A DNA stretch of 58,531 nt from an uncultured Gammaproteobacteria bacterium (GCA_964448725.1 CAYVAJ010000007.1:1-58531), one strand, 5' to 3'. Positions 3,783-31,178 are shown, numbered from the stretch's first letter. Made by a program: numbers and translations. Notes: generated from the sequence alone by a model not told the origin.

Positions 3783-3959
3783 TTACTTTTGTATTACTTG
3801 CTGGCCTTTATAAAACCCACAAGTGCGGCAAACAATATGCGGTGCATTTGCTGCTCCACAATTGGTGCATCGAGCAATAGATGTAAGAGACAATCGGATT
3901 GCCTCGCGTCTTTTACCTTTTCGTGCGACTGAATGTCTTTTCTTTGGTTCGTGTGCCAT
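3783..3959 (-). CDS. rpmF: 50S ribosomal protein L32
   Basis: MAHEPKKRHSVARKGKRR...CxxCG...CxxCG. GAAGGAG SD before ATG 3959. The longer track ORF is an upstream extension. Confidence 0.9.
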   Translation of the reverse strand: MAHEPKKRHSVARKGKRREAIRLSLTSIARCTNCGAANAPHIVCRTCGFYKGQQVIQK

Positions 3960-4045
3960 AATGTCTCCTTCGGAGGAATTTTCAAATTCCAAATTACAAT
4001 TTTCAATGAATTTTAAAAATTTAAAATTTCAAATTAAAAATTAGA

Positions 4046-6121
4046 TCAATCAGGATTGACCTTTTGTATTATAGTAGATTTGAGCCTGTCTTGCAATATC
4101 GGATACTGAGAGAGGTGAACATATATTTTTCGTGCGTCCTGTTGAGACTTATGAATAAGAGACTGGTCACCAAAATTTGCTACTTTGAGCATTCGTGATC
4201 CATGCTGTACAGTGCCATATATATCGCCTGCTCCACGCATACGAAGATCAATTTCTGCAAGCGCTGCTCCAGTATGAGTAGTTTCTAAAGATTTAAGTCG
4301 AGAGGTTGTCTTACTGCTTTCGCTTTCAGTGAATAACAGGCAGTACGATTGTTTATCATTCCGCCCTACTCGGCCACGGAGTTGATGGAGACTGGCAAGT
4401 CCGAATCGTTCTGCAGCTTCAATTACCATGATTGTCGCATTAGGAATATCGATTCCTACTTCAACAACTGGAGTTGAGACTAATATTTGAGTATCTCCTT
4501 GTTGAAATTTGCTCAGAATTTCTTGTTTTTCAGTTGCTTTCATTTTTCCATGTAATAATCCGAGTTTGAATTCAGGAAAGACATTTTTTTGGAGGTGCTC
4601 ATATTCTTTCATTGCTGCACGCACACTCTGCATACTCTCTGATTCTTCAATGAATGGACAGACAATAAATACTTGGTTGTAATTACCTTTTTTATCTTTT
4701 TGTAAGATATTTTTCTTAATCCATTCATATGCAGCAGCCCGTTTGTGATTGGGAGTAAGCCATGTTTTGATTGGAAGTCTCCCATGAGGCAGTTCATCAA
4801 GAATTGAGAGCTCAAGATCGCCATACATAGTCAGAAAGATTGTCCTAGGGATTGGTGTTGCAGTCATACTCAAAAAATGCGGTGCCAACCCTTTATCTCG
4901 TAAAGTACCTCGTTGATGTACGCCAAACCGGTGTTGTTCGTCAACAACAACAAAGCCAAGATTATTGAAATCTGCACTATTGTGAAGCAATGCGTGCGTT
5001 CCGATCAAAATGTCAGGTAAATCTTGACTATCGGAGCCATTGGGTGATTTATTTGTTGCTCTTTTTGATTTATTTCCACTCGTTACCAGACGTACAGTTA
5101 CACCCAGTGGTTGGAGAATACGGGTTACTGTTGCATAGTGTTGTTCTGCCAAAATCTGAGTTGGTGCCATAAGTGCTGATTGGAATCCATTGAGATAGGC
5201 AATATACATGCCAATTGCAGCAACAACTGTTTTACCTGAGCCTACATCTCCCTGAAGAAGTCTATTCATAGGTGTTGATTTGCTGATATCAGATAAAATC
5301 TCATCAATTGCCCTCATTTGTGCAGTTGTTAGGGTAAAAGGCAGGGTCTTGTATAGGGCAGAAAGTTTCTTTTTATATGGATCTGTTTTAAATGCATGTG
5401 TTGTTTTTTTCGTTGTCCATTCATTTTTACGATGAATTGCGCCGAGTTGGATCATAAATAGCTCGTCATAGGCAAATCTATTACGAGCTTGCTCTGCCTC
5501 TTTTAGGTTAGTGGGAAAATGAATTTTTATGATCGCCTCATTGAGCGGAAGGAGCTTATTTTCTGACAAGATTGTCTCAGGAAGATGTTCTATAAAAAAA
5601 TCATTGGTGGAATCAAGCAGAGTTCTAATACGGTTCCGAATCCATTTTGAGCTTACCCCTCGTGTTTCAGGATATACTGGGACGAGTGCGCCAGTATGAA
5701 TAGTTGGTGATGCAAGGTCAGGTATTACTTCATACTCTTTGACTTGTATTGTTGATTTATTCCCAAAACGCTCTACTCTTCCTGACACACTCAAGAAATC
5801 ACCAATATGCAGATTTCGTGTGACATACGATTGATTAAACCATACACACTCAATGGTCCCGCTATCATCGGCTATTTCTACTTTTTGAATCTGAAATCTC
5901 GTTCTCGTATAGACATTTTGAATAGATGCAACAGTGCCTTTTACTGTTACTATATCGATGTTTTGAACAAGAGCAATAGGTGATGTATGGGTATAATCAT
6001 CGTACCGAGAAGGCAGATGCATGAGCAGATCTTTCACAGTGTGGATTCCAAGTTTTTCAACTTTTTTAGCATAGAGAGAAAATGCACGTCCTGCTTGATT
6101 AAGTGGTGTATCAAGTGTCAT
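4046..6121 (-). CDS. recG: ATP-dependent DNA helicase RecG
   Basis: N-terminal OB wedge region, Walker A GDVGSGKT, DEQHRFG box, 691 aa. Confidence 0.9.
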   Translation of the reverse strand: MTLDTPLNQAGRAFSLYAKKVEKLGIHTVKDLLMHLPSRYDDYTHTSPIALVQNIDIVTVKGTVASIQNVYTRTRFQIQKVEIADDSGTIECVWFNQSYVTRNLHIGDFLSVSGRVERFGNKSTIQVKEYEVIPDLASPTIHTGALVPVYPETRGVSSKWIRNRIRTLLDSTNDFFIEHLPETILSENKLLPLNEAIIKIHFPTNLKEAEQARNRFAYDELFMIQLGAIHRKNEWTTKKTTHAFKTDPYKKKLSALYKTLPFTLTTAQMRAIDEILSDISKSTPMNRLLQGDVGSGKTVVAAIGMYIAYLNGFQSALMAPTQILAEQHYATVTRILQPLGVTVRLVTSGNKSKRATNKSPNGSDSQDLPDILIGTHALLHNSADFNNLGFVVVDEQHRFGVHQRGTLRDKGLAPHFLSMTATPIPRTIFLTMYGDLELSILDELPHGRLPIKTWLTPNHKRAAAYEWIKKNILQKDKKGNYNQVFIVCPFIEESESMQSVRAAMKEYEHLQKNVFPEFKLGLLHGKMKATEKQEILSKFQQGDTQILVSTPVVEVGIDIPNATIMVIEAAERFGLASLHQLRGRVGRNDKQSYCLLFTESESSKTTSRLKSLETTHTGAALAEIDLRMRGAGDIYGTVQHGSRMLKVANFGDQSLIHKSQQDARKIYVHLSQYPILQDRLKSTIIQKVNPD

Positions 6122-10126: not shown

Positions 10127-10450
10127 TTATATAAGTTTAAATTTAATTATTTTGATAGGTGTATCCAGTGTTACTGTTGTATTGTAGTAGCCTGAATAAG
10201 TGGTGAGCATTTCATCAATTGATTTGAATTTTTCGTGTCCTTGCGTGTCTTCTTCTCTGAGATGTTTAAATGTTGTCTCTTTTACCCATTGTATCTCAGC
10301 TTTACCAAATTCATTTCGGTCTGAATCTATGAGTGATAAGATGTCACCTTTTTGAAGATCTTTATCATCGTTGATTCTCCAGGTGGTATCTTTCTCACCT
10401 TTCAGAATCATTTCAGGAAGTGGTTCAATAAATTTCAATGTTTTAATCAT
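10127..10450 (-). CDS. ASCH-domain protein
   Basis: ILKGEKDTTWR and a short beta-barrel-like layout typical of ASCH. Confidence 0.6.
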   Translation of the reverse strand: MIKTLKFIEPLPEMILKGEKDTTWRINDDKDLQKGDILSLIDSDRNEFGKAEIQWVKETTFKHLREEDTQGHEKFKSIDEMLTTYSGYYNTTVTLDTPIKIIKFKLI

Positions 10451-13612: not shown

Positions 13613-13996
13613 TTAAAGTTTAAATTTTCTTTTGCCTTTGAGCGTTAATAAGCTTGCACCAATTATATTACACAATTGCCTTGTTTCATCAAGAAATTGA
13701 TTAACTTTCACTTTATCACTTTCTGTAGCATCTCTTAAAATTCCTAACCAGTACTGTGTTTCAGTAGCGCTTTTTAATGCAATATTAAAAAACTTAATAA
13801 AATCACGTTTACTCGATGCCGCTTGTGCTTCAATTATATTTGCTCCGATCGAAGTGGCAGAACGTAGTAACTGATCAGATATAACCCAATATACCCTTGA
13901 ATCAGGTAGCGTTGAAACATATTTTACAATTGCAATTGAGAATTTATACGCGCGTATTTTTAACTCTTGCTTTGTTCTATTTTCTTCGCTATCCAT
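13613..13996 (-). CDS. four-helix-bundle protein (23S rRNA intervening-sequence protein family)
   Basis: SATSIGANIIEAQAASSKRDFIKFFNIALKSATETQYWL signature. Confidence 0.8.
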   Translation of the reverse strand: MDSEENRTKQELKIRAYKFSIAIVKYVSTLPDSRVYWVISDQLLRSATSIGANIIEAQAASSKRDFIKFFNIALKSATETQYWLGILRDATESDKVKVNQFLDETRQLCNIIGASLLTLKGKRKFKL

Positions 13997-14061: not shown

Positions 14062-14385
14062 TTATTTGATTTCACTATCTTGAACGTGATGTGTTGCATC
14101 TGTGTCATTTTGTTCAGATGGAATATCATAGTCTTTATTACCATTGAGAGACATAAGAATTACCTCTTTCCCATTTCTTGGACATAGTGCAGTCTCAGTA
14201 CCCAAGAGTGATGCAGGGACAATTCCTGAATCATACTGACATCCTTTGATTTTTTCAGTTGCTAAATATGGACATGTGACTCCGTCATTTTGTATGCAGG
14301 GAGACAGCATGAGAGAATCATTTTGTTGTGTTTCTCTGATTGCTTGTGCCATATCAATTGATGTACGTATTTTATTTTCTATCAT
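14062..14385 (-). CDS. orphan 107-aa Cys-containing protein (driven by module M1)
   Basis: 13-nt SD AGAAAGGAGGTGA lies 7 nt before ATG 14385. No family recognised. Confidence 0.55.
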   Translation of the reverse strand: MIENKIRTSIDMAQAIRETQQNDSLMLSPCIQNDGVTCPYLATEKIKGCQYDSGIVPASLLGTETALCPRNGKEVILMSLNGNKDYDIPSEQNDTDATHHVQDSEIK

Positions 14386-14450
14386 ATGTATTTCACCTCC
14401 TTTCTTGTCATAACCTTCGGCTATGCTCAGGATATTGGCATTTTGCCAAT

Positions 14451-14473
14451 AAAAAAACCTCCCGTTTGGGAGG
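14451..14473 (-). terminator. intrinsic terminator CCTCCC-AAAC-GGGAGG-T7 (M1)
   Basis: 6-bp GC stem, 4-nt loop, seven T. Confidence 0.7.
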
Positions 14474-14501
14474 TCTGTGCATTCGTGGCTTTTACGTTTA
14501 T

Positions 14502-14606
14502 TTACTTGCTCATACCACGAGCAAACCTCCCTTTAAGGGAAGTAAAGTAAAAAAAGTAAAAAGCTTGCGCGGTTTGGGTAATGGTATATAGATTCTGAGC
14601 GGCCAT
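14502..14606 (-). CDS. possible 34-codon leader ORF of M1
   Basis: ATG 6 nt after the rplT stop. MAAQNLYTITQTAQAFYFFYFTSLKGRFARGMSK reads through seg1 and seg2 and stops 28 nt before seg3. No SD. Confidence 0.25.
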   Translation of the reverse strand: MAAQNLYTITQTAQAFYFFYFTSLKGRFARGMSK

Positions 14607-15253: not shown

Positions 15254-15787
15254 TTATTTTAGTCTCGAAAGTATTGTTACCATTTGGCGACCTTCCATGT
15301 GTGGTTCTCGCTCAACTTTTGCAACATCTTCAAGCTTTGTAATCACTTTTCTCAAGACTTGTTCGCCGAGCTCTTTTTTCGTAAATTCTCTTCCACGGAA
15401 ACGGACTTCAAATTTTACCTTATCTCCATCATCAAAAAACTCTTTTGCTCGTTTTACCTTAATATCCAAATCGTGATCCCCGATAAAAGGTCCCATTCTG
15501 ATTTGTTTAGTCTCAGAAGTGACACTTTTTTTCTTCTCTTCTTGTTTCTTTTTCTTTAACTGATACAAAAACTTACTGTAATCAATTAATCGCGCTACAG
15601 GCGGTTTTGCCATTGGCGCAATCTCAACCAGATCTAATTCCTGTTCATCACTCAGTTTTCGTGCTTCATCGATGCTCATCACACCGATTTGTTTTCCTTC
15701 ACTGTCAAGAAGTCGTACTTCTCGAGCCCGGATCTGATGATTTATCCGGTAAAATGGTTGTTTTGTTTGATTATATTTTTTTCTCAA
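15254..15787 (-). CDS. infC: translation initiation factor IF-3
   Basis: RINHQIRAREVRLLDSEGKQIGV. The start codon is TTG (15787-15785), consistent with the known non-AUG autoregulated infC start. Overlaps the thrS end by 17 nt. Confidence 0.9.
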   Translation of the reverse strand: MRKKYNQTKQPFYRINHQIRAREVRLLDSEGKQIGVMSIDEARKLSDEQELDLVEIAPMAKPPVARLIDYSKFLYQLKKKKQEEKKKSVTSETKQIRMGPFIGDHDLDIKVKRAKEFFDDGDKVKFEVRFRGREFTKKELGEQVLRKVITKLEDVAKVEREPHMEGRQMVTILSRLK

Positions 15788-17540
15788 TTTCGTTTTGGAT
15801 TCTCTCTAAAAATTCAGAGAGCGCAAGACTTCCAAGATCTTTGCCGTCACGGGTTCGGATGCTTACTATCTCTTTTCCCACACTATTACTCTCGGATTCT
15901 TCCTTTCCGCCTATTATACACAGATAAGGCACCTTTTGTAAAGTAGCCTCACGGATTTTTGCTCCTACTGTTTGGTTTGAGTTATCAAGCTCAACACGAA
16001 CTCCAGAAGACTCTATTATTTTATAAATTTTTTGAGCATATTCTTCAACTTTTTCTGAGACAGGCAAGACTGCGACTTGTGTAGGTGCAAGCCAGACAGG
16101 AAATGCACCAACATAGTGTTCGATGAGTATTCCTAAGAACCGTTCAAGTGAGCCATAAATTGCCCGATGAAAAACAACAGGCATTTTTTCTGATCCATCA
16201 GATTCTGTATATTTAAGCTTAAAGTTTTTAGGTTGCTGAAAATCAAGTTGAATTGTTCCTGTTTGCCATTGTCGGCCAATTGCGTCTTGCATGAGAATAT
16301 CTACCTTTGGTCCATAAAATGCTCCTTCTCCTTCGGCTTTAAAGTATTCTTGACCTGATTCTTTGAGGACTGATTCTAATGCTTCTTCTGCCATATCCCA
16401 GTCTTTACTTTCTCCCATAAATTTTTCAGGCCTTGTACCAAATCGTAATGTATAGGAGAGATTAAATGGTGCATACATTGCGTCAATCATCTGCATAATC
16501 TGATCAAATTCATCTTTAATCTGATCTAAAGTAATAAATATATGAGCATCATCCTGCCTGAACTGTCTAGTTCTAAATAGTCCGTTAAGCGTTCCTGAAC
16601 GCTCAAATCGATGTAAAAGACTTGTATCAGCAAGTCTTAAGGGGAGGTCATTATATGATCTGGTTTTTGATTTAAATATAACCATTGCATTTGGACAGTT
16701 CATTGGTTTTATTCCAAATATTTCATCATTACTCTGCTCTTTAGCTGGTATTTGCAGACGGTCCATATCGGCAATGAACATATCATCCTTATAATGTGAC
16801 CAATGTCCAGAGGTTTCATACAACTCTTTTTTATTTAATTGCGGAGTCATTACTTCTTGATAGTCAAATTTGGTATATATTTCTCGAGTAAAGTCATATA
16901 GTATGTTATATAAAACAAGACCTTTTGGAAGCCAATATGTCATACCAGGGGATGTCTCATGAATCATAAATAAATCAAGGTCTTTACCGATTTTTTTGTG
17001 GTCACGTCTTTTTGCTTCTTCTAGCATATGCAGATATGCATCAAGTTCTTCTTGTGTTGGAAAACAAGTGCCGTAAATTCGGGTAAGCATTGGATTTTTT
17101 TCATCTCCGCGCCAATATGCCCCAGCAAGTGATAACAGCTTAAAAGCACCTATATTTTTATTTGGTGTTTCACTATGTCCGCCACGACACAGGTCTTCAA
17201 ACATACCAGCTTTGTAAAATGTGAGTTTTTCACCTCTGTTCTCAATCTCATCAATGAGTTCAAGTTTGAAAGGGTTATCATGGTAATATTCACGTGCCTG
17301 TTCAGCAGATACTTCCCGATGGGAAAATTTATCCCAGTCTTTGAGTGTCTTCTCCATCATTTTTTCAATTTTTGGGAGATCTGATTCTGAGATGGGTTGG
17401 GCGAACTGAAAGTCATAATAGAACCCATGCTCTATTGCTGGTCCAATTGTGAGCTTTGTATCTGGATATAGTCGTAGAACTGCTGCCGCAAGCAAATGCG
17501 CACACGAGTGTCGTAGATTGTTTAATGCTTCATTATTCAT
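15771..17540 (-). CDS. thrS: threonine--tRNA ligase (no N-terminal TGS domain)
   Basis: Editing/second-additional-domain HxxxH (SCAHLLA), class II core, anticodon-binding domain. Confidence 0.9.
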   Translation of the reverse strand: MNNEALNNLRHSCAHLLAAAVLRLYPDTKLTIGPAIEHGFYYDFQFAQPISESDLPKIEKMMEKTLKDWDKFSHREVSAEQAREYYHDNPFKLELIDEIENRGEKLTFYKAGMFEDLCRGGHSETPNKNIGAFKLLSLAGAYWRGDEKNPMLTRIYGTCFPTQEELDAYLHMLEEAKRRDHKKIGKDLDLFMIHETSPGMTYWLPKGLVLYNILYDFTREIYTKFDYQEVMTPQLNKKELYETSGHWSHYKDDMFIADMDRLQIPAKEQSNDEIFGIKPMNCPNAMVIFKSKTRSYNDLPLRLADTSLLHRFERSGTLNGLFRTRQFRQDDAHIFITLDQIKDEFDQIMQMIDAMYAPFNLSYTLRFGTRPEKFMGESKDWDMAEEALESVLKESGQEYFKAEGEGAFYGPKVDILMQDAIGRQWQTGTIQLDFQQPKNFKLKYTESDGSEKMPVVFHRAIYGSLERFLGILIEHYVGAFPVWLAPTQVAVLPVSEKVEEYAQKIYKIIESSGVRVELDNSNQTVGAKIREATLQKVPYLCIIGGKEESESNSVGKEIVSIRTRDGKDLGSLALSEFLERIQNEIEKKI

Positions 17541-17629: not shown

Positions 17630-17860
17630 TTACTCCAAATTGGTATCCAATAAAACTACTTCTTCTGATATATCAAGCACTTCATTGCTCGCATATTCTG
17701 GATTTGCTTTGACGAGACTTCCTATTCCAATGTACGGTAACTCATTTACTGATGGGTTTTCTGATTGGTAAGCTCTTTTACTTTCCGCAATTTTTTCTCT
17801 TCGTTCTTCAGTAGTTCCACTAAATATGTAATCAGTTATTAATCTTTCTCGTTCAGACAT
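17630..17860 (-). CDS. orphan 76-aa acidic protein (driven by module M2)
   Basis: AGAAAGGAGGTGA SD. The ATG at 17860 is preferred over the track GTG that lies inside the SD. Confidence 0.5.
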   Translation of the reverse strand: MSERERLITDYIFSGTTEERREKIAESKRAYQSENPSVNELPYIGIGSLVKANPEYASNEVLDISEEVVLLDTNLE

Positions 17861-17924
17861 ATATGTCACCTCCTTTCTTGTTATAACCTTTGGCTATGCT
17901 CAGGGTTATTGGTATTTTGCCAAT

Positions 17925-17947
17925 AAAAAAACCTCCCATGTGGGAGG
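17925..17947 (-). terminator. intrinsic terminator CCTCCC-ACAT-GGGAGG-T7 (M2)
   Basis: 6-bp GC stem plus T7. Confidence 0.7.
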
Positions 17948-17974
17948 TCTGTCAGCACGCAAACAAAAACCTCC

Positions 17975-18019
17975 CTAGGAAGCTTTCATTTGCATCATTA
18001 CGTTAGTTGTTATTATCAT
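17975..18019 (-). CDS. 14-codon leader mini-ORF of M2 (MIITTNVMMQMKAS)
   Basis: ATG 9 nt after TATAAT (18034-18029). The stop TAG (17977-17975) is the loop of the seg1:seg2 hairpin. Confidence 0.4.
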   Translation of the reverse strand: MIITTNVMMQMKAS

Positions 18020-18059
18020 AGTGCAATTATTATATATCAAATCTTTCATTTGTATGCAA

Positions 18060-18332
18060 TTAGCTATTGCGGATTGAGCCTTGTTCATACAGGTAATTTA
18101 AAATATCACTGATAAAATTCCCAACAAACGGTATAACGTCAACGAACTGAGATAAAAGACTTACTAATGAAAGAATTAACGCAATACCAATGATCGATCC
18201 AATTCCCCAAAAAATACCTCCAAGTAAATTGTTTGCGATTATCTCTCCTTTTGATAATTTAGAAGATCTTTCAAATGGTTGAACTGGTGTGGTTGGTGGG
18301 GGTGTTTCTTTGCTTTTCTTAAATTTTGCCAT
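18060..18332 (-). CDS. small membrane protein
   Basis: Start taken at MAKFKKSKETPPP because the longer track ORF runs into the tRNA-Val gene. One TM helix GGIFWGIGSIIGIALILSLVSLL. Confidence 0.5.
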   Translation of the reverse strand: MAKFKKSKETPPPTTPVQPFERSSKLSKGEIIANNLLGGIFWGIGSIIGIALILSLVSLLSQFVDVIPFVGNFISDILNYLYEQGSIRNS

Positions 18333-18397
18333 TGCGTCTACTAGTGTACCATAATTATGTGATTTTGGAACCCCAGATAATGCTGAATAGAGTTTTG

Positions 18398-18469
18398 TGC
18401 GCGCACATGGGTTCGAACCAAGGACCTCTTCGATGTCAACGAAGCACTCTACCACTGAGCTATGCGCGC
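18398..18469 (-). tRNA. tRNA-Val (GAC)
   Basis: Hand-folded cloverleaf: acceptor GCGCGCA/TGCGCGC, anticodon arm CTTCG-TTGACAT-CGAAG, T-loop TTCGAAC (one U-U in the T stem). No encoded CCA. Confidence 0.8.
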
Positions 18470-18479
18470 TAATTTAAAT

Positions 18480-18655
18480 TAATGTGCTCACCACACTTGT
18501 CTGCGGCTTGCCTTGCAAGTGATCTCCCTCACTACGTTCAGTCCGATCCAACTGAGCTATGACTCCAAATAAAGCTGTCTGTTTGATAGTTAGCAGACTT
18601 AAGCTATGACTCCGGAATAATCAAAACCTGACTATGATAGACAAGCTATGACTTG
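18480..18655 (-). repeat. three tandem copies of a tRNA 5'-end-like fragment
   Basis: Minus strand GGAGTCATAGCTCAGTTGGA (18566-18547), GGAGTCATAGCTT (18613-18601), AAGTCATAGCTT (18654-18643). No matching 3' acceptor strand found. Confidence 0.5.
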
Positions 18656-18703: not shown

Positions 18704-18943
18704 TTATCCTTTATGTACCAGATCTTGTATATGTACTATCTGGTTTTCTGATGCACTTACTTCATTAAATGGATTTTCAGGATATTGTACTTCAATGAGA
18801 TCACCATATGAATCAAAAGCATTTTGGATAGCTGCTGTTACGTGCTCAACTTCTTGAACAGAATTCTGCTGGGTATGCTCCAAATCTCTATTACTCCAGT
18901 TGTTATACATATCTTGTATCATTGCTAATTCATGATTTGCCAT
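18704..18943 (-). CDS. orphan 79-aa acidic protein (driven by module M3)
   Basis: AGAAAGGAGGTGA SD 7 nt before ATG 18943. Confidence 0.5.
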   Translation of the reverse strand: MANHELAMIQDMYNNWSNRDLEHTQQNSVQEVEHVTAAIQNAFDSYGDLIEVQYPENPFNEVSASENQIVHIQDLVHKG

Positions 18944-19010
18944 ACTATTTTCACCTCCTTTCTTTTCATAACCCTTCGACTATGCTCAGGGTTATTGGCA
19001 TCTTGCCAAT

Positions 19011-19051
19011 AAAAAAACCTCCTGTTGCCTCGTTGTACGAGGTAAAGGAGG
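19011..19051 (-). terminator. intrinsic terminator CCTCC...GGAGG-T7 with inner hairpin (M3)
   Basis: CCTCC/GGAGG outer stem, inner CCTCG-TACAA-CGAGG, then seven T. Confidence 0.6.
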
Positions 19052-19078
19052 TTGCCAATTCACTGGAACAACACTCCC

Positions 19079-19132
19079 TTAAGGAGTAATAATTCCAAGA
19101 ATAATGTCAAATTGTATATATTGTTTTTTCAT
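19079..19132 (-). CDS. 17-codon leader mini-ORF of M3 (MKKQYIQFDIILGIITP)
   Basis: The stop TAA (19081-19079) is exactly the loop of hairpin ACTCCT-TAA-GGGAGT. Confidence 0.35.
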   Translation of the reverse strand: MKKQYIQFDIILGIITP

Positions 19133-19167
19133 ATGTTGTCTAGCTATATTTTTGTTAGTTTCGAGAT

Positions 19168-19191
19168 GAGGGGCACAGACGTGTGCCCCTC
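19168..19191 (-). terminator. GC-rich hairpin after ORF 19267-19548
   Basis: GAGGGGCAC-6 nt-GTGCCCCTC, a 9-bp stem with no clear T-run. Confidence 0.4.
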
Positions 19192-19266
19192 GTGATAGTA
19201 AGCCGGTCAGCGGTTTTCCAATTTCCTCGCGATTGAGGAGTTGGACAGTCAAGCGCTGTCCCGGAC

Positions 19267-19548
19267 TTAAAATTGTGGTACTTGTGTTTTATCTCCAAAG
19301 CTAGGGCCACGTTTGTTGCCCTGTTTACGCTTTTCTGGGTGCACAAGAGGCCCCCAGGGAGTATCTGAAGGAGGATCTTGAATGTGGGAGTAGCCATCAT
19401 CTGAAACTGCTCCACAATTCTTTTCATCGGGAGCGCTATAATTAGTAGCGCCATCCCATTCGCCCCAATGAGCCTCAAGGATTTCTCGATGAAGCTCTGC
19501 TAACTTGAGTTCCTCTCGGTTCGGTCTGCGTAGTTTACTGGAGTTCAT
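19267..19548 (-). CDS. G+C-rich orphan protein D (93 aa)
   Basis: GAAAGGAAG SD 5 nt before the ATG. 13-nt gap after the upstream ORF. No family recognised. Confidence 0.5.
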   Translation of the reverse strand: MNSSKLRRPNREELKLAELHREILEAHWGEWDGATNYSAPDEKNCGAVSDDGYSHIQDPPSDTPWGPLVHPEKRKQGNKRGPSFGDKTQVPQF

Positions 19549-19560
19549 GATACTTCCTTT

Positions 19561-20163
19561 CTATCCGAAAACATACTCAGATACGGTTGCTCGGATCCCA
19601 CGTCGGCGTGAACGATTCTTTCGTTCCTCCTTGAATTGTCTGACAGGTGTCATATCCCAGTCGTGACCGACCAGTCTATCCCACCTGTTAAGCCATTCTT
19701 GAGCTTGAGCGTTATCCTGTGGCACAGAGCCACACGGAAGTATGCTCTGGTCCTTTTGAAGGACGCGGAGATGAGCGAACCGCAACGTATTGTTGACGAG
19801 AACGCTCATGTCGTGCTTGAGGTGGCGCAGATCGCCTTTCCTCACAAGATGTACCATCGGCGTCTTTAACGCCAGAGGAATGATATCCTTACCGATGAGT
19901 CTGTAAGACTCGATCATAAGGTTCTTTTTGAACCACCTAAACAACTTGCGGTTGCCATCGTAGCCCATGAAGAACAATCCGTCACTTGGAACTTCTTCAG
20001 GATAATCCACTATTTGAACTTTTACGCCTTTTCGTCCTCTTTGAGTTTGGATCGCCATACTGGCTAACTCATCAGAGGAGAGTGCGTAAAGCGTAATGCT
20101 AGGTTGAATGGGAAGTTCCATTTCTTTTATTCCTTGCCGTAAGATTGAATCTATTCCCTTCAC
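19561..20163 (-). CDS. G+C-rich orphan protein C (about 186-200 aa, start uncertain)
   Basis: The track start is GTG 20163. An alternative ATG at 20121 (MELPIQP) has AAGGAA upstream. Basic C-terminal tail KNRSRRRG. Confidence 0.5.
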   Translation of the reverse strand: MKGIDSILRQGIKEMELPIQPSITLYALSSDELASMAIQTQRGRKGVKVQIVDYPEEVPSDGLFFMGYDGNRKLFRWFKKNLMIESYRLIGKDIIPLALKTPMVHLVRKGDLRHLKHDMSVLVNNTLRFAHLRVLQKDQSILPCGSVPQDNAQAQEWLNRWDRLVGHDWDMTPVRQFKEERKNRSRRRGIRATVSEYVFG

Positions 20164-20420
20164 CTCTGTGGTCTATCACACCCTCATGGATGGTGACTCC
20201 TTTCACTTGTACGACTACCACGGTAAAGGGATACTGATGACAAGACATATCACCACTATTCCCTTCACCGTGTGATTAGTACCACGGTGTCTTGTACTGC
20301 ACACAATCGCAGTTGCGCTTTTGCACCATTGATCGTGTTTTCCAAGACGATGTTAATGTACATGCCCCTAAAAAACATCCTTCGGCAATGCTCAGGATTG
20401 TATTTTCTCCTATAAAATAC

Positions 20421-20445
20421 AAAAAAACCTCCCTTTTTGGGGAGG
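20421..20445 (-). terminator. intrinsic terminator CCTCCCC-AAAAA-GGGAGG-T7 (M4)
   Basis: GC stem plus seven T. Confidence 0.7.
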
Positions 20446-20486
20446 TAGTTAGGTATATTCTTTGGGCTATATTGCTCCTCCCACTA

Positions 20487-20543
20487 TTAGACCGCCTCTG
20501 TAAAGAGGACGTTCACAATAATAGGAAGGAGTTGCATACTCAT
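20487..20543 (-). CDS. 18-codon leader mini-ORF of M4 (MSMQLLPIIVNVLFTEAV)
   Basis: ATG 10 nt after the -10, no SD. TAA sits 4 nt before seg2. Same length and same stop context GGTCTAAT as in M6. Confidence 0.5.
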   Translation of the reverse strand: MSMQLLPIIVNVLFTEAV

Positions 20544-20617
20544 ATTAGTAATTATTTTATGCTCATCTGTTTGATTTGTCAACACTGAATTATTTTTTTA
20601 TGATCTTGAGAAAGATT

Positions 20618-20644
20618 GGTTCGGGAGGATAGACCCCCCGAACC
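20618..20644 (-). terminator. 11-bp hairpin after ORF B
   Basis: GGTTCGGGGGG-TCTAT-CCTCCCGAACC (one G-U). Weak T-run. Confidence 0.4.
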
Positions 20645-20691
20645 AAAACGAGAATGCGTGGGCATCAATATTCCGAGCGTACACGGAAATG

Positions 20692-21243
20692 TTACCCCAG
20701 CATCCAGCCAGTGTGCGGACTGAGCAGCCCTCGACTGATTGTGACCGGAGATTTGTATCGATACCGGCGCAGTTTCATGAGTACCTGCTTTAGATCAGGC
20801 GTTTCTTCCCAGTCGACAGAAAGATTTCTCAGGATCTGTACTTCCTTCAGCCATTGTTCATACAGAAGCATGTTTGCTTCCTCTGTGGGCTCACTTGGTC
20901 CCCAGGGGTTCCCTGTATAGTTGCTAACTCGCCATTCTTCGATAGCGACGGCCGCTTCGAGAAGCGGAATATCCAACGAAGCCTCAGCGGATACATAAAT
21001 CCCAAGACGATTAGGTGTCGCAATTGAGTTAGGGCACTCTACTCTGTGTGATGCTGTGCGGATGACAGGAACTTTCTTGTGTTCTGATTCTTGCGGCATT
21101 GCAGTAATTAAGATATCTGTTTCCTCGTGCAGGTCATTGTACTTGTTTGGATAACGCACAATGCATCCTGCGTATTCAAGGATCCTTCCTGCCTCAATCA
21201 CTCGTGGCGGGCTATCAAGATATACACTATATACACACCGCAT
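20692..21243 (-). CDS. G+C-rich orphan protein B (183 aa)
   Basis: AAAGGA SD 8 nt before the ATG. The N-terminus MRCVYSVYLDSPPRVIEAGRILEYAGCIV resembles that of protein A. Confidence 0.55.
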   Translation of the reverse strand: MRCVYSVYLDSPPRVIEAGRILEYAGCIVRYPNKYNDLHEETDILITAMPQESEHKKVPVIRTASHRVECPNSIATPNRLGIYVSAEASLDIPLLEAAVAIEEWRVSNYTGNPWGPSEPTEEANMLLYEQWLKEVQILRNLSVDWEETPDLKQVLMKLRRYRYKSPVTISRGLLSPHTGWMLG

Positions 21244-21405
21244 GATGTGATCCTTTCAGTAAAATCTTTCTCCCCAGATTGGGAGCTAACAAACTCTGAC
21301 GTCTGTCAGAATTTCTCTACTCACAACCTGGTATGTCAAAGAACTACCCATTCGACAACCTGCTTGTAGGCAGGGCTCAGGGTTATGATTCTATTTATAA
21401 GTCAC

Positions 21406-21429
21406 AAAAAAACCTCCCTTTTGGGGAGG
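21406..21429 (-). terminator. intrinsic terminator CCTCCCC-AAAA-GGGAGG-T7 (M5)
   Basis: GC stem plus seven T. Confidence 0.7.
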
Positions 21430-21455
21430 TGCTTTCAGTTAAAAATTATTTTTTA

Positions 21456-21542
21456 CTATACTTTCAGACTATCCCTCCCCACAGCAGTGATATGCCACAT
21501 ACGTGGGAGAGATGTAAGTGTAAAAGAATTGTTTAATTTCAT
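21456..21542 (-). CDS. 28-codon leader mini-ORF of M5 (MKLNNSFTLTSLPRMWHITAVGRDSLKV)
   Basis: ATG 7 nt after the -10 (leaderless). Reads through seg1 and seg2. Stop lies 26 nt before seg3. Confidence 0.45.
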   Translation of the reverse strand: MKLNNSFTLTSLPRMWHITAVGRDSLKV

Positions 21543-21582
21543 ACGGTCTAGTTTAAAGAATATATAGGATTCTGTCAAGGTT

Positions 21583-21616
21583 AAAAGATGCGCGGCGGAT
21601 GGTGATTTCCGCCGCG
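21583..21616 (-). terminator. terminator of ORF A
   Basis: CGCGGCGGA-8 nt-TCCGCCGCG, a 9-bp stem, then CATCTTTT. Sits 5 nt before the M5 -35. Confidence 0.55.
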
Positions 21617-21684
21617 TGTAGTGTGCAATTAGCTCGGTATGAGCATTTGGTCCGACCATGTCGGGAAATACTCCTTGTTCCGAA

Positions 21685-22161
21685 CTAGTAGCCGCTGTAG
21701 AGGCGGACATATCGCACTTTCGGCTTTCCCCTCGCGTCAATGACCGCATAATTGGCCTCTTCGGCCATACGGTTTAATGTTATTTGAATCCTGCGAGGGA
21801 GAGGTTCGTCTATTTTGACAGCAATTTCTTTTGCTGCGTTTACCACAGCAAAGGCAAAGCTGCCTGCGTATTGAGCATTTAAATGCTCACGCATCACTAT
21901 GTGCTGTGAGAACGCTTTTGCCCACCCGGGCATGTGTTCGTCAGATACCCTACGGCGGGTAGTCATGACGTGCCGTTTGTTCCATTGGACTGATCCAAGG
22001 GGAACAAAGATTGCAACATCACCAGGATCTGGATCCATCGCAAAGACGAACCGTTGTGTTTCATGCAGGACTGCTTTCTCTTTCACGAGAAATCCAGCAT
22101 TTCTCAGAGCTTCAGCTGCTTTTGTGCTGGTCGGGCATTCAACATTATAGATGATACGCAT
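21685..22161 (-). CDS. G+C-rich orphan protein A (158 aa)
   Basis: GGAGGTG SD 4 nt before ATG 22161 (the track ORF is 18 codons longer). Line 21901-21960 counts 36/60 G+C. Confidence 0.55.
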   Translation of the reverse strand: MRIIYNVECPTSTKAAEALRNAGFLVKEKAVLHETQRFVFAMDPDPGDVAIFVPLGSVQWNKRHVMTTRRRVSDEHMPGWAKAFSQHIVMREHLNAQYAGSFAFAVVNAAKEIAVKIDEPLPRRIQITLNRMAEEANYAVIDARGKPKVRYVRLYSGY

Positions 22162-22296
22162 GACGCACCTCCATGCTACTTCCACATTGGAAGCACAGAA
22201 CGTTTGACAGTTCAAACGCTCTTCTCTTCCAATGATAATTACTGTTAAAGAACACCCTTCGACAAGCTCAGGGTTATGATTCTATTTATAAGTCAC

Positions 22297-22319
22297 AAAA
22301 AAACCTCCCGTGTGGGAGG
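22297..22319 (-). terminator. intrinsic terminator CCTCCC-ACAC-GGGAGG-T7 (M6)
   Basis: GC stem plus seven T. Confidence 0.7.
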
Positions 22320-22362
22320 TTCCTGAAATTGTATGTAATTTACTTATGACATCTCTCCCACA

Positions 22363-22419
22363 TTAGACCCGCTCCATAAGGAGACAGAAATCAAAAAGTG
22401 GATAGAGATTTTTCATCAT
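22363..22419 (-). CDS. 18-codon leader mini-ORF of M6 (MMKNLYPLFDFCLLMERV)
   Basis: ATG 9 nt after the -10, no SD. TAA sits 3 nt before seg2. Confidence 0.5.
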   Translation of the reverse strand: MMKNLYPLFDFCLLMERV

Positions 22420-22461
22420 TTCGTAATTATTTTAACGAAGTAAAAGCGTTTGTGTCAAGTA

Positions 22462-29813: not shown

Positions 29814-31178
29814 TCATGCGACTTGTCCAAGTCGTTCGCCTTCAGTTTGTTCGAAAGCTCCGACTAAGAGGTACGCGCCTGCTACACCCATCGCAACACA
29901 GAAAACAGCCACCATTACAACGACAAGCCAGACAAGCGTTGAAATCTCCGGCCAGAGCCGATACGATTCGATGGTGTCGGCATACGCAGAACTGGTTTCA
30001 CTTATGTTGCGTATTGCTTGTTCTGAGTCAGCTGTTGTCTGCTCGAGCAGATCAAAGGTCTTGGTCCCGGACACGACAAGATCCGCAGATGTTTGATCTA
30101 GCTGAGTGTTTACGGATTGAAGGTTCTCCCGCTGAATAGTCAGATCTTGGATGATCTCGACACGTTGTGTGTCTACGACTTCCAAGAAATCCCCTCCAAT
30201 TGTGATAAATTCATCGCCTGAATCAAGAGCGGTGTCAATCGTATTGACATTTTCGCCCAGATCAGCGACAAATAGCGTATCTGAGGCATCGACTCCATCA
30301 AGTATATCCTGAAGTATCAGGAGCATGGAGAAGTTGATTTCGCTAAATCCTTCCTGATCACTCCAATCTGCAAAGTCATGCAGAAGACCTGGCAAATCTT
30401 CCAGGTATGGTGCAGTACTTCCAGATAATTGGCGATCAAGATCGTCTGCGAGTCCTCGAAGGTCATCGGTTGTCACGATAACGCTTTCTGAGAAAACGAT
30501 ATCGTAGCCTTCTTCCCTTGCCAAGTCAGCCAGATCCCGTACAACCTGTGAACCAGAGACTCCTTCAGGCCAATCATTTTGTGCCTCAAGGTACTTAACC
30601 TCTGACGCAATGGTGTACAAGTCGTCTGAAGTAAAGAGTCTTTGCCCCTCTGAGCGGTCAACCCTGTCTTGCCATTCATTGATGACAAGCCGTGCGTCAG
30701 CACTCATGCTGCTCATTTCTGCAGCATAGTCAGAGTGAGATGCCGTGACAGTACGTGCTTCAGCAATGACTGCTTGAGCATCGGAGAAGATGTTTGATCC
30801 TGTGTTCAGGATGGGTGGAACATCTTCATCTATGAGGGTTTGTGTTCTCTCGAGAGAAACGTCAAGATCTGTGATGATCTTCTGACTTGTACTGACTCCT
30901 TCTGGCAAGTCAGTGAGTAGTATTGTGCGGAACTCCTGTAGGGGCTCATTTGATTGATTCACATCATCAGCGATCTTATCCAAGTCGCTTGCTGATACTC
31001 TAAGTCCTTCTGCGGCCTCTACTTGGAGAGGAGTCATCGCAGAGTCAAGGCTCCCTTCGATGATTGAAGGGAGAAATAACGATGAGATAAGTCCTACCAG
31101 ACCTGCAACAAACAGGAGAACTCCCATAGCTGCCCTGAAAGAATGCCAACGCCCAGATCGAAGTCTAAATCGATTCAC
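29814..31178 (-). CDS. G+C-rich, very acidic protein with N- and C-terminal TM helices (orphan)
   Basis: GTG start. TM1 AAMGVLLFVAGLVGLISSLFLPSII, TM2 STLVWLVVVMVAVFCVAMGVAGAYLLVGAF, with about 370 Asp/Glu-rich residues between them. Line 30421-30480 counts 30/60 G+C. Confidence 0.55.
   Translation of the reverse strand: MNRFRLRSGRWHSFRAAMGVLLFVAGLVGLISSLFLPSIIEGSLDSAMTPLQVEAAEGLRVSASDLDKIADDVNQSNEPLQEFRTILLTDLPEGVSTSQKIITDLDVSLERTQTLIDEDVPPILNTGSNIFSDAQAVIAEARTVTASHSDYAAEMSSMSADARLVINEWQDRVDRSEGQRLFTSDDLYTIASEVKYLEAQNDWPEGVSGSQVVRDLADLAREEGYDIVFSESVIVTTDDLRGLADDLDRQLSGSTAPYLEDLPGLLHDFADWSDQEGFSEINFSMLLILQDILDGVDASDTLFVADLGENVNTIDTALDSGDEFITIGGDFLEVVDTQRVEIIQDLTIQRENLQSVNTQLDQTSADLVVSGTKTFDLLEQTTADSEQAIRNISETSSAYADTIESYRLWPEISTLVWLVVVMVAVFCVAMGVAGAYLLVGAFEQTEGERLGQVA

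Follow-up and report, generated by a model that had tools for sequence, protein, structure and literature searches.

A syntenic, fast-diverging array of GC-rich genes behind candidate leader-peptide attenuators in Levyibacteriota

Ribosome-mediated attenuation is classically known from the thr, ilv, leu, his and trp operons. Leader-peptide control also reaches virulence genes, as in the mgtCBR leader of Salmonella, which senses Pro-tRNA. Here, we analyzed a stretch of 58,531 nt of DNA (GCA_964448725.1 CAYVAJ010000007.1:1-58531, registered as an uncultured Gammaproteobacteria bacterium; hereafter the window), in which a sequence-only reading had described a G+C-rich block of four orphan genes, the open reading frames (ORFs) A to D, arranged in three transcription units that each begin with an attenuator-like leader. 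The relatives of its threonyl-tRNA synthetase (ThrRS) place the window in Candidatus Levyibacteriota, a lineage of the Candidate Phyla Radiation (CPR), with the closest represented species at 80% ThrRS identity. Judging from their sequences, we conclude that the leader modules are genuine leader-peptide transcription attenuators and belong to one lineage-wide family. On balance, we favor the view of the block as an array of fast-evolving accessory genes that is conserved within the clade and gated by attenuators paralogous to those in front of pheS/aro genes and thrS. Most likely, ribosome stalling at the leader codons turns on this hypervariable array.

Leader modules and their relatives

As presented in Table 1, the proposed layout of promoter, leader, terminator, ORF and terminator was recovered for A, for B and for C with D: promoters, mini-ORFs, attenuator terminators and end hairpins are all present, and each unit does close with its own hairpin (folding z = -5.8 to -6.3). 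A promoter scan gave strong minus-strand sigma70-like promoters with 10-11 of 12 matching positions for the three units, and no consistent promoter between attenuator terminator and ORF. The window contains six copies of the leader module, all of them on its minus strand: three stand ahead of A, B and C, and three ahead of AT-rich small ORFs. The modules of A, B and C were where the sequence-only reading had placed them, and its total of three becomes six. In all six copies, the attenuator terminator reads CCUCCC-N4-6-GGGAGG followed by U7. As first described, D starts about 13 nt after C with its own Shine-Dalgarno (SD) sequence, and C ends in a basic tail. Gene C was retained with a different start, ATG 20121 being more likely than the GTG at 20163; it gives a protein of 186 aa, which is the version found in the public collection.

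Against Rfam RF01859 (Phe_leader), leader m6 gave a full-model match of 40.8 bits, and m1 and m2 gave full-length, weaker matches of 26.8 and 21.9 bits, all under the 55-bit gathering threshold. An nhmmer profile built from m1-m3 and the leader of the related locus L031 found approximately 60 sites across Levyibacteriota loci; every one of them lies on the same strand as thrS, and they are concentrated after DUF5660 and after rplT. The leader peptides after rplT (n = 17; e.g., NYFWFYFTS and AQAFYFFYFTS) have a Phe/Tyr/Trp fraction of 0.25 and a Leu/Ile/Val fraction of 0.15, and they precede DAHP synthase, shikimate kinase, prephenate dehydratase (PheA), EPSP synthase (AroA) or pheS, identified by our reading of the N-terminal sequences. 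After DUF5660 (n = 21), the corresponding fractions are 0.08 and 0.32, and leaders directly before thrS carry Thr runs (L057, L027 and L017). Clusters of putative regulatory codons stand out in m3 (LLPIIVNVL) and m6 (FYFFYF), m1 and m2 being less clean. The m3 peptide and the m4 leader both have orthologs in L031, L065 and L067, and the m1 ortholog in L065 reads MHKNLFSLYLSYLLER up to its stop.

In minimum-free-energy folds of m1 and m3, segment 1 pairs with segment 2 (the regulatory codons with ..UAGUGGGAGG..) and segments 3 and 4 form the terminator. The competing 2:3 antiterminator, in which the upstream segment pairs with the 5' arm of the terminator, was better than in shuffled sequences for 72% of 43 leaders (mean z = -2.8). 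The switches are of a resident type, as the sequence-only reading had supposed, and the comparative data on members of this family in front of pheS/aro genes and thrS across Levyibacteriota strengthen that view considerably. Conditional control of A-D is the best reading of these leaders.

By analogy with the trp, phe and ilv attenuators, we infer both a switching mechanism and its trigger signal. Each of the three units would have its own sigma70-type promoter and its own ribosome-mediated attenuator. When the sensed aminoacyl-tRNAs are plentiful, the ribosome would finish the 17-28-codon leader to its stop and mask segment 2 (..GUGGGAGG..), the CCUCCC/GGGAGG-U7 hairpin would form and transcription would terminate. 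A stall on Leu/Ile/Val codons in m3, or on Leu/Phe/Tyr codons in m1, would leave segment 2 free for the CCUCCC arm; with these two paired, no terminator would form and the payload would be transcribed.

Two further RNA elements follow the attenuator terminators. The first, which we call the GA-hairpin, has an invariant CUGAGC...CGAA core (possibly with tandem G-A pairs) and a covarying stem, and each of the six attenuator terminators has one 20-26 nt past its U-tract, the 58 kb containing no other copy. This hairpin matches no Rfam family, and on inspection its sequence fitted neither a hammerhead, a k-turn, an attC site nor a promoter. The orthologous leaders of L031, L067 and L070 lack it, and it is present after terminators in L010, L013 and L065. 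At m3 it lies within a clean 39-nt insertion, and at m4-m6 it is accompanied by an AUUGGCA...UGCCAAU hairpin. It looks like either a small mobile palindromic insert with a strong positional preference or a functional add-on. The second element, a two-tier hairpin in the 5' untranslated region (UTR), stands between attenuator and start codon in units of the m1/m2 type, also in L065 (~1336-1395) and L067 (~3918-3978), and it may be a second regulatory or stabilizing element.

The small acidic ORFs of 79, 76 and 107 aa behind m4, m5 and m6 lie between the attenuators and their expected targets, thrS and pheS. They match no known protein family; the 76-aa and 79-aa ORFs have counterparts in relatives (LITDY and MYNNW motifs). 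In addition, a 23S_rRNA_IVP gene (PF05635, E = 4e-23) at 13613-13996 on the minus strand is located between the Phe attenuator with its 107-aa ORF and pheS, far from rRNA genes.

Table 1. Features of the three payload units and of the further attenuators in the window. GC3, G+C fraction at third codon positions; pN/pS, ratio of nonsynonymous to synonymous differences per site.
Feature	Position	Strand	Remarks
Unit 1 promoter	22429-22458	-	TTGACA-18-TAAAAT; 11/12 consensus matches
Unit 1 leader mini-ORF m1	22363-22419	-	MMKNLYPLFDFCLLMERV, stop; codons = segment 1, pair with GUGGGAGAG (segment 2, ~22353-22361)
Unit 1 attenuator terminator	22297-22319	-	CCUCCCACACGGGAGG-U7; segments 3:4
Unit 1 GA-hairpin	22254-22274	-	ACCCUGAGC-loop-GUCGAAGGGU; small inserted palindromic element
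Unit 1 long 5' UTR hairpin	22185-22234	-	conserved, covarying; 19 predicted pairs, 7 with compensatory changes
ORF A	21685-22161	-	158 aa; GC3 0.47; cytoplasmic
Unit 1 end hairpin	21591-21616	-	folding z = -5.8
Unit 2 promoter	21550-21578	-	TTGACA-17-TAAACT; sigma70-like scan
Unit 2 leader mini-ORF m2	21456-21542	-	MKLNNSFTLTSLPRMWHITAVGRDSLKV, stop; reads through the GUGGGGAGG segment
Unit 2 attenuator terminator	21406-21430	-	scan
Unit 2 GA-hairpin	21345-21385	-	additional inner hairpin in loop
Unit 2 5' UTR hairpin	21274-21331	-	conserved, covarying
ORF B	20692-21243	-	183 aa; GC3 0.47; between strains pN/pS 0.14, purifying selection
Unit 2 end hairpin	20616-20646	-	folding z = -6.3
Unit 3 promoter	20554-20582	-	TTGACA-17-TAAAAT; sigma70-like scan
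Unit 3 leader mini-ORF m3	20487-20543	-	MSMQLLPIIVNVLFTEAV, stop; Leu/Ile/Val type; LLPIIV codons pair with UAAUAGUGGGAGGAG
Unit 3 attenuator terminator	20421-20446	-	scan and fold
Unit 3 GA-hairpin	20377-20398	-	within the 39-nt insertion relative to the orthologous L031 leader
ORF C	19561-20121	-	186 aa; GC3 ~0.5; model: N-terminal alpha/beta, helical C-terminal part, basic tail
ORF D	19267-19548	-	93 aa; hypervariable; conserved PWG / HPE / PSFGD islands
Hypervariable segment (last ~20 codons of C, and D)	19283-19616	-	sharp bounds; 46-71% identity between strains, flanks 97-100%
Unit 3 end hairpin	19168-19191	-	folding z = -5.8
Fourth attenuator m4	18944-19132	-	Ile-type leader MKKQYIQFDIILGIITP, stop; terminator and GA-hairpin (18968-18995); precedes AT-rich 79-aa ORF 18704-18943
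Fifth attenuator m5	17861-18060	-	GA-hairpin ~17886-17912; precedes 76-aa ORF 17630-17860 and thrS
Sixth attenuator m6	14386-14600	-	leader peptide ...AQAFYFFYFTSL...; GA-hairpin ~14409-14436; between rplT and pheS; precedes 107-aa ORF 14062-14385

Payload genes in related genomes

The genes flanking the block are DUF5660, DUF5665, thrS-infC-rpmI-rplT and pheST. The order tig-DUF5660-(gap)-DUF5665-thrS-infC-rpmI-rplT-(gap)-pheS-pheT is kept in approximately 40 loci, across which both gaps range from ~0.1 to 7 kb. The site of the block, from the DUF5660 gene to tRNA-Val, is a variable hot spot.

When we examined the gene neighborhoods of A-D homologs, we observed the same units at the same site in related genomes. 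A-D are not strict orphans: in other Levyibacteriota, syntenic and strongly diverged orthologs exist for B, C and D, and probably for A. Ortholog identity is 38% for B (E = 7e-28), 30-47% for C and ~20-24% for A, D being recognized by motif, in comparison with 68-91% for the flanking proteins. The homologs of A are a 97% strain variant and a syntenic protein of L065 (20% identity by best local BLASTP, 24% by end-to-end alignment). For B, three relatives were found among 1.84 billion representatives, and the family of C has four members among 5.8 billion clusters. A metagenome scan based on DUF5660 added a single locus.

In L065, whose DUF5660 fragment is 68% identical to that of the window, the first leader after this gene resembles m1 and stands before an ORF like A. 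Next come the ortholog of B, of exactly equal length, and a 63-aa ORF, then a leader resembling m3, behind which lie the ortholog of C (30%, E = 3e-16) and an ORF like D. A leader resembling m4, an ORF like the 79-aa one and tRNA-Val complete the series. In L070, InfC, RplT and PheS are 86-91% identical to their window counterparts, C is 47% identical and D is recognized by motif only. The adjacency of C and D also holds in L065, L069 and L070. L031 and L067 have retained orthologous leaders (MSFRWLPIINIVLFTEEI, MSMHLLPIINIVLVTEAI) with shorter or different GC-rich ORFs behind them; across L031, L065 and L067, the leader is conserved and the payload changed.

In L067 (~3996-4250), the first unit after DUF5660 encodes an 84-aa CxxC...CxxC protein, with a homologous leader and UTR hairpin in front. 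This different payload behind a homologous leader indicates that payloads are swapped behind a conserved switch. In a different neighborhood, between NTP-transferase and peptidase M19 genes, L066 (4380-5973) encodes a 452-aa protein with a B-like N-terminal domain, at 58% GC in a genome of 37-39% GC, and this gene is also preceded by a mini-ORF (MEIKKKLSSWLHFNLFELTKEIGFS, stop) and an intrinsic terminator.

An assembly chimera, which the sequence-only reading had raised as a concern, was excluded: two independent contigs, L068 and L069, read across the leader/payload junctions, and the unit order is the same in L065. The suggested paralogy of A and B was not demonstrated, the BLASTP alignment being in another register (E = 0.14) and hhalign giving a probability of 1.5% (E = 0.03); among A, B and C together, only unproven hints of paralogy were seen.

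Between strains, pN/pS is 0.14 for B, 0.49 for A (on just 8 differences), 0.47 for C and 0.54 for D, in comparison with 0.08-0.15 for housekeeping genes. The payloads are real genes and less constrained than the housekeeping ones. Strain-to-strain identity forms a mosaic: leaders are 98-100% identical, payload cores 85-97%, and the stretch from 19616 to 19283 (the tail of C with D) 46-71%. The D protein is only 33% identical, with its PWG, HPE and PSFGD islands kept. For the tail of C and D, the proportion of synonymous differences (pS) reaches 0.79, which shows import of a divergent allele.

Two further observations concern this neighborhood. ThrRS is only 60% identical between the window (15771-17540) and L070 (2018-3784), next to InfC, RplT and PheS at 86-91%, and the thrS allele appears to have been replaced through recombination in one of the two lineages. 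Upstream of tRNA-Val (18397-18469), three partial tRNA 5' ends (GGAGTCATAGCT...) lie at 18644-18653, 18602-18613 and 18548-18566 on the minus strand and match the tRNA-Val of L031, L065 and L067. In the window, the acceptor stem of the intact tRNA-Val(GAC) differs from these (GCGCGC...), and L070 carries yet another version, which suggests repeated replacement or integration at this tRNA gene.

Function and origin of the payloads

As the sequence-only reading had stated, no known domain was found in A-D: searches of Pfam, NCBIfam, PHROGs and PADLOC gave no family match for A-D and the three small ORFs, and a PDB sequence search with the payloads was negative. Neither the P0018 extension nor the other payloads contain a Pfam domain, and in distant Levyibacteriota the payloads behind this type of leader are also unannotated. 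The AlphaFold model of B was unusable (predicted local distance difference test score, pLDDT, of 43). That of C was moderate (pLDDT 64.5, predicted template modeling score 0.66); its confident N-terminal beta-alpha-beta-beta part resembles flavodoxin or CheY-like folds only weakly, and Foldseek with this model gave nothing significant against PDB and BFVD, the best hits being weak CheY/flavodoxin-like folds.

Among the rival explanations, a conflict system (toxin-antitoxin, abortive infection, or competition or host-directed effectors), with attenuators that sense translation stress and arm the payloads, is possible if doubtful. It would suit fast-evolving, one-clade genes in a variable hot spot, and likewise C and D as a tight pair, whose basic C tail and whole D are replaced jointly between strains as interacting partners would be; the B ortholog of L065 also has a small downstream partner ORF, and all the payloads under this leader type in other Levyibacteriota lack annotation. 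However, PADLOC, Pfam and PHROGs returned no match, no nuclease, kinase or other toxin fold was recognized, no signal peptide hints at secretion and pN/pS is below 1 wherever measurable. The defence, toxin or competition role suggested by the sequence-only reading would be a guess, the joint replacement of C tail and D being its only hint. Our best guess, offered tentatively, is that the payload is an intracellular conflict or stress module in which the basic tail of C would have the partly acidic D as its partner, the two being swapped between strains as a unit. A bolder version, which we regard as unlikely, would make the array a new CPR conflict/stress module of hypervariable cytoplasmic proteins armed only on ribosome stalling (under host-imposed starvation or translation attack), with GC-richness as the footprint of allele exchange and duplicated attenuators as general translation-stress sensors.

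A recently acquired foreign island, with GC-rich genes captured behind resident promoters and not yet ameliorated, is improbable. The deviation that suggests it is real. The window is ~37% GC overall and climbs to 45-52% across 19.2-22.2 kb, the block 19267-22161 having 45.9% in comparison with 37.4% in the remaining window; the earlier counts of 36/60 G+C at 21901-21960 and 18/60 at 10141-10200 are both exact. A-D are strong compositional outliers, as the sequence-only reading had proposed, with GC3 of 0.47, 0.47, 0.51 and 0.36 against a median of 0.27 for the 52 large ORFs of the window. They favor G/C-ending codons for nearly all amino acids, are enriched in Arg, Pro and Trp and depleted in Ile, Lys and Phe. 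An island would also agree with the adjoining tRNA-Val gene and its relic 5' tRNA fragments, and with the near absence of A-D homologs among 5.8 billion protein clusters. Nevertheless, the same units occur in the same order behind orthologous leaders in L065 and L070 at ~20-47% protein identity and are still GC-rich, L067 and L031 having the same leaders with other or shorter payloads; synonymous sites are saturated between the window and related genomes (pS ~0.6-0.8), and an import of that age (pS ~0.8) should have ameliorated. In agreement with the sequence-only reading, we saw no gene for an integrase, a transposase or a phage function within ~8 kb of the block, and profiles of A, B and C found no relative in viral contigs.

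All the orthologous payloads are GC-rich (GC3 0.49-0.62). Together with the saturated synonymous sites, this indicates that GC-richness is maintained over time and is not the remnant of a recent import; the composition that the sequence-only reading called foreign-looking is thus a long-maintained property of the families. One recent transfer does not account for it. It is most simply explained by continual allele exchange at the hot spot, drawing on a GC-richer pool or acting through GC-biased gene conversion. We rejected mRNA structure as the cause, the families being inconsistent and host genes falling within the same range. We also rejected selection for starvation-robust codons: the shift to C is equally strong in the two-codon NNY families, where one tRNA reads both codons, and the attenuator-gated 79-, 76- and 107-aa ORFs have a host-like GC3. 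Two more genes in the window are GC3-rich and without a convincing Pfam family, both on the minus strand: the one at 1278-1751 (GC3 0.56) has a strong promoter and no attenuator, and the N-terminus of its 157-aa product is signal-peptide-like; the one at 29814-31178 (GC3 0.43) codes for an acidic protein of 454 aa whose ends are hydrophobic. The block is therefore not the only place with GC-rich accessory genes.

It is decidedly improbable that the leaders are not switches, being instead independent small-RNA genes or terminators of the upstream genes, with payloads expressed constitutively through read-through or unrecognized promoters. The mini-ORFs without a clear SD sequence would fit this, as would the GA-hairpin and UTR hairpin downstream of the terminator, to which no role is assigned, and attenuator-derived transcripts can work as small RNAs in other bacteria (PMC6614838). 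Against it, peptide composition follows the downstream gene across the phylum (Phe/Tyr/Trp for aro and pheS, Thr for thrS), the antiterminator complementarity is significant, and no promoter recurs between terminator and ORF. A structured non-coding RNA, rRNA-like or intron-like, with spurious ORFs is largely refuted: 3 kb of raised GC in an AT-rich genome would be typical of rRNA, and folding of the A and C-D regions is stronger than in shuffled sequences (z ~ -5), but Rfam returned only tRNAs at gathering and permissive thresholds, B combines its pN/pS of 0.14 and its equal-length ortholog with no excess folding, a GC1 > GC2 periodicity is present, and some host genes reach similar z.

Several points weigh against our preferred reading of a clade-conserved array gated by attenuators. 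The switch itself is a reading of sequence; the mini-ORFs have no obvious SD sequences, and the m1 and m2 peptides are not clean runs of one amino acid, leaving the sensed amino acid ambiguous. Attenuators of this class typically gate genes for metabolism or charging of the sensed amino acid, to which A-D have no link; in relatives, such a link exists where members of the family precede aro genes, pheS or thrS, and it is typical of the class and not obligatory. None of the searches (PADLOC, PHROGs, Pfam, NCBIfam, PDB, Foldseek) supports a particular payload function. The cause of GC-richness is not established, and mRNAs of the A and C families fold somewhat better than shuffles, as do some host genes.

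Comparison with described systems

Like type II toxin-antitoxin systems, C and D are small, adjacent genes on the same strand, 13 nt apart, with an interface-like C tail and D swapped as a unit; in contrast to them, C and D match no known toxin or antitoxin family or fold. The array also resembles tRNA-adjacent islands and integron arrays in its short, deviant, unannotated genes with repeated elements between them, next to a tRNA gene at a variable site. Unlike integron arrays, it has no integrase, and by inspection the element between ORFs is not attC-like (RYYYAAC/GTTRRRY, R''/R' sites). What sets it apart from both is that a separate promoter stands before each unit, that a regulatory leader makes up the repeated element and that relatives carry the array in synteny and diverged, which is not the state of a new insertion. 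If confirmed, compositional foreignness would be separable from recent transfer, the families staying GC-rich in AT-rich genomes past synonymous saturation, a caution against taking GC deviation alone as a sign of recent transfer. The persistent GC-richness calls for an explanation; candidates are selection, exchange with a GC-richer pool and, at a recombination hot spot, biased gene conversion.

The attenuator of E. coli pheST (pheM leader, RF01859) is matched by m6 in position, likewise between rplT and pheS, and in its Phe/Tyr-rich peptide (FYFFYFTS) followed by an intrinsic terminator. It differs in that m6, m1 and m2 all score below the Rfam threshold, the terminator stems of the window are SD/anti-SD-like CCUCCC/GGGAGG, and a small ORF and the 23S_rRNA_IVP gene stand between attenuator and pheS. 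With the classical ribosome-mediated attenuators, on which PMC3082878 cites comparative work, the family shares the four-segment design, the regulatory codons inside segment 1 and a leader composition that suits the regulated gene; in contrast to them, it occurs in a CPR lineage, and m1-m3 gate genes unlinked to amino-acid metabolism. We found no prior description of leader-peptide attenuation in CPR bacteria in the searchable literature; if confirmed, the leaders of thrS, pheS and aro genes would put classical leader-peptide attenuation on record for a CPR/Patescibacteria lineage. Duplicated attenuators re-used for unrelated, rapidly diversifying genes would offer a testable handle on when CPR 'dark matter' genes are expressed. 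In this, the block may be likened to mgtCBR, a charged-tRNA-sensing leader that times non-biosynthetic genes, as we propose for the window. The two have no sequence relationship, and the window differs in its several paralogous leaders and hypervariable gene array.

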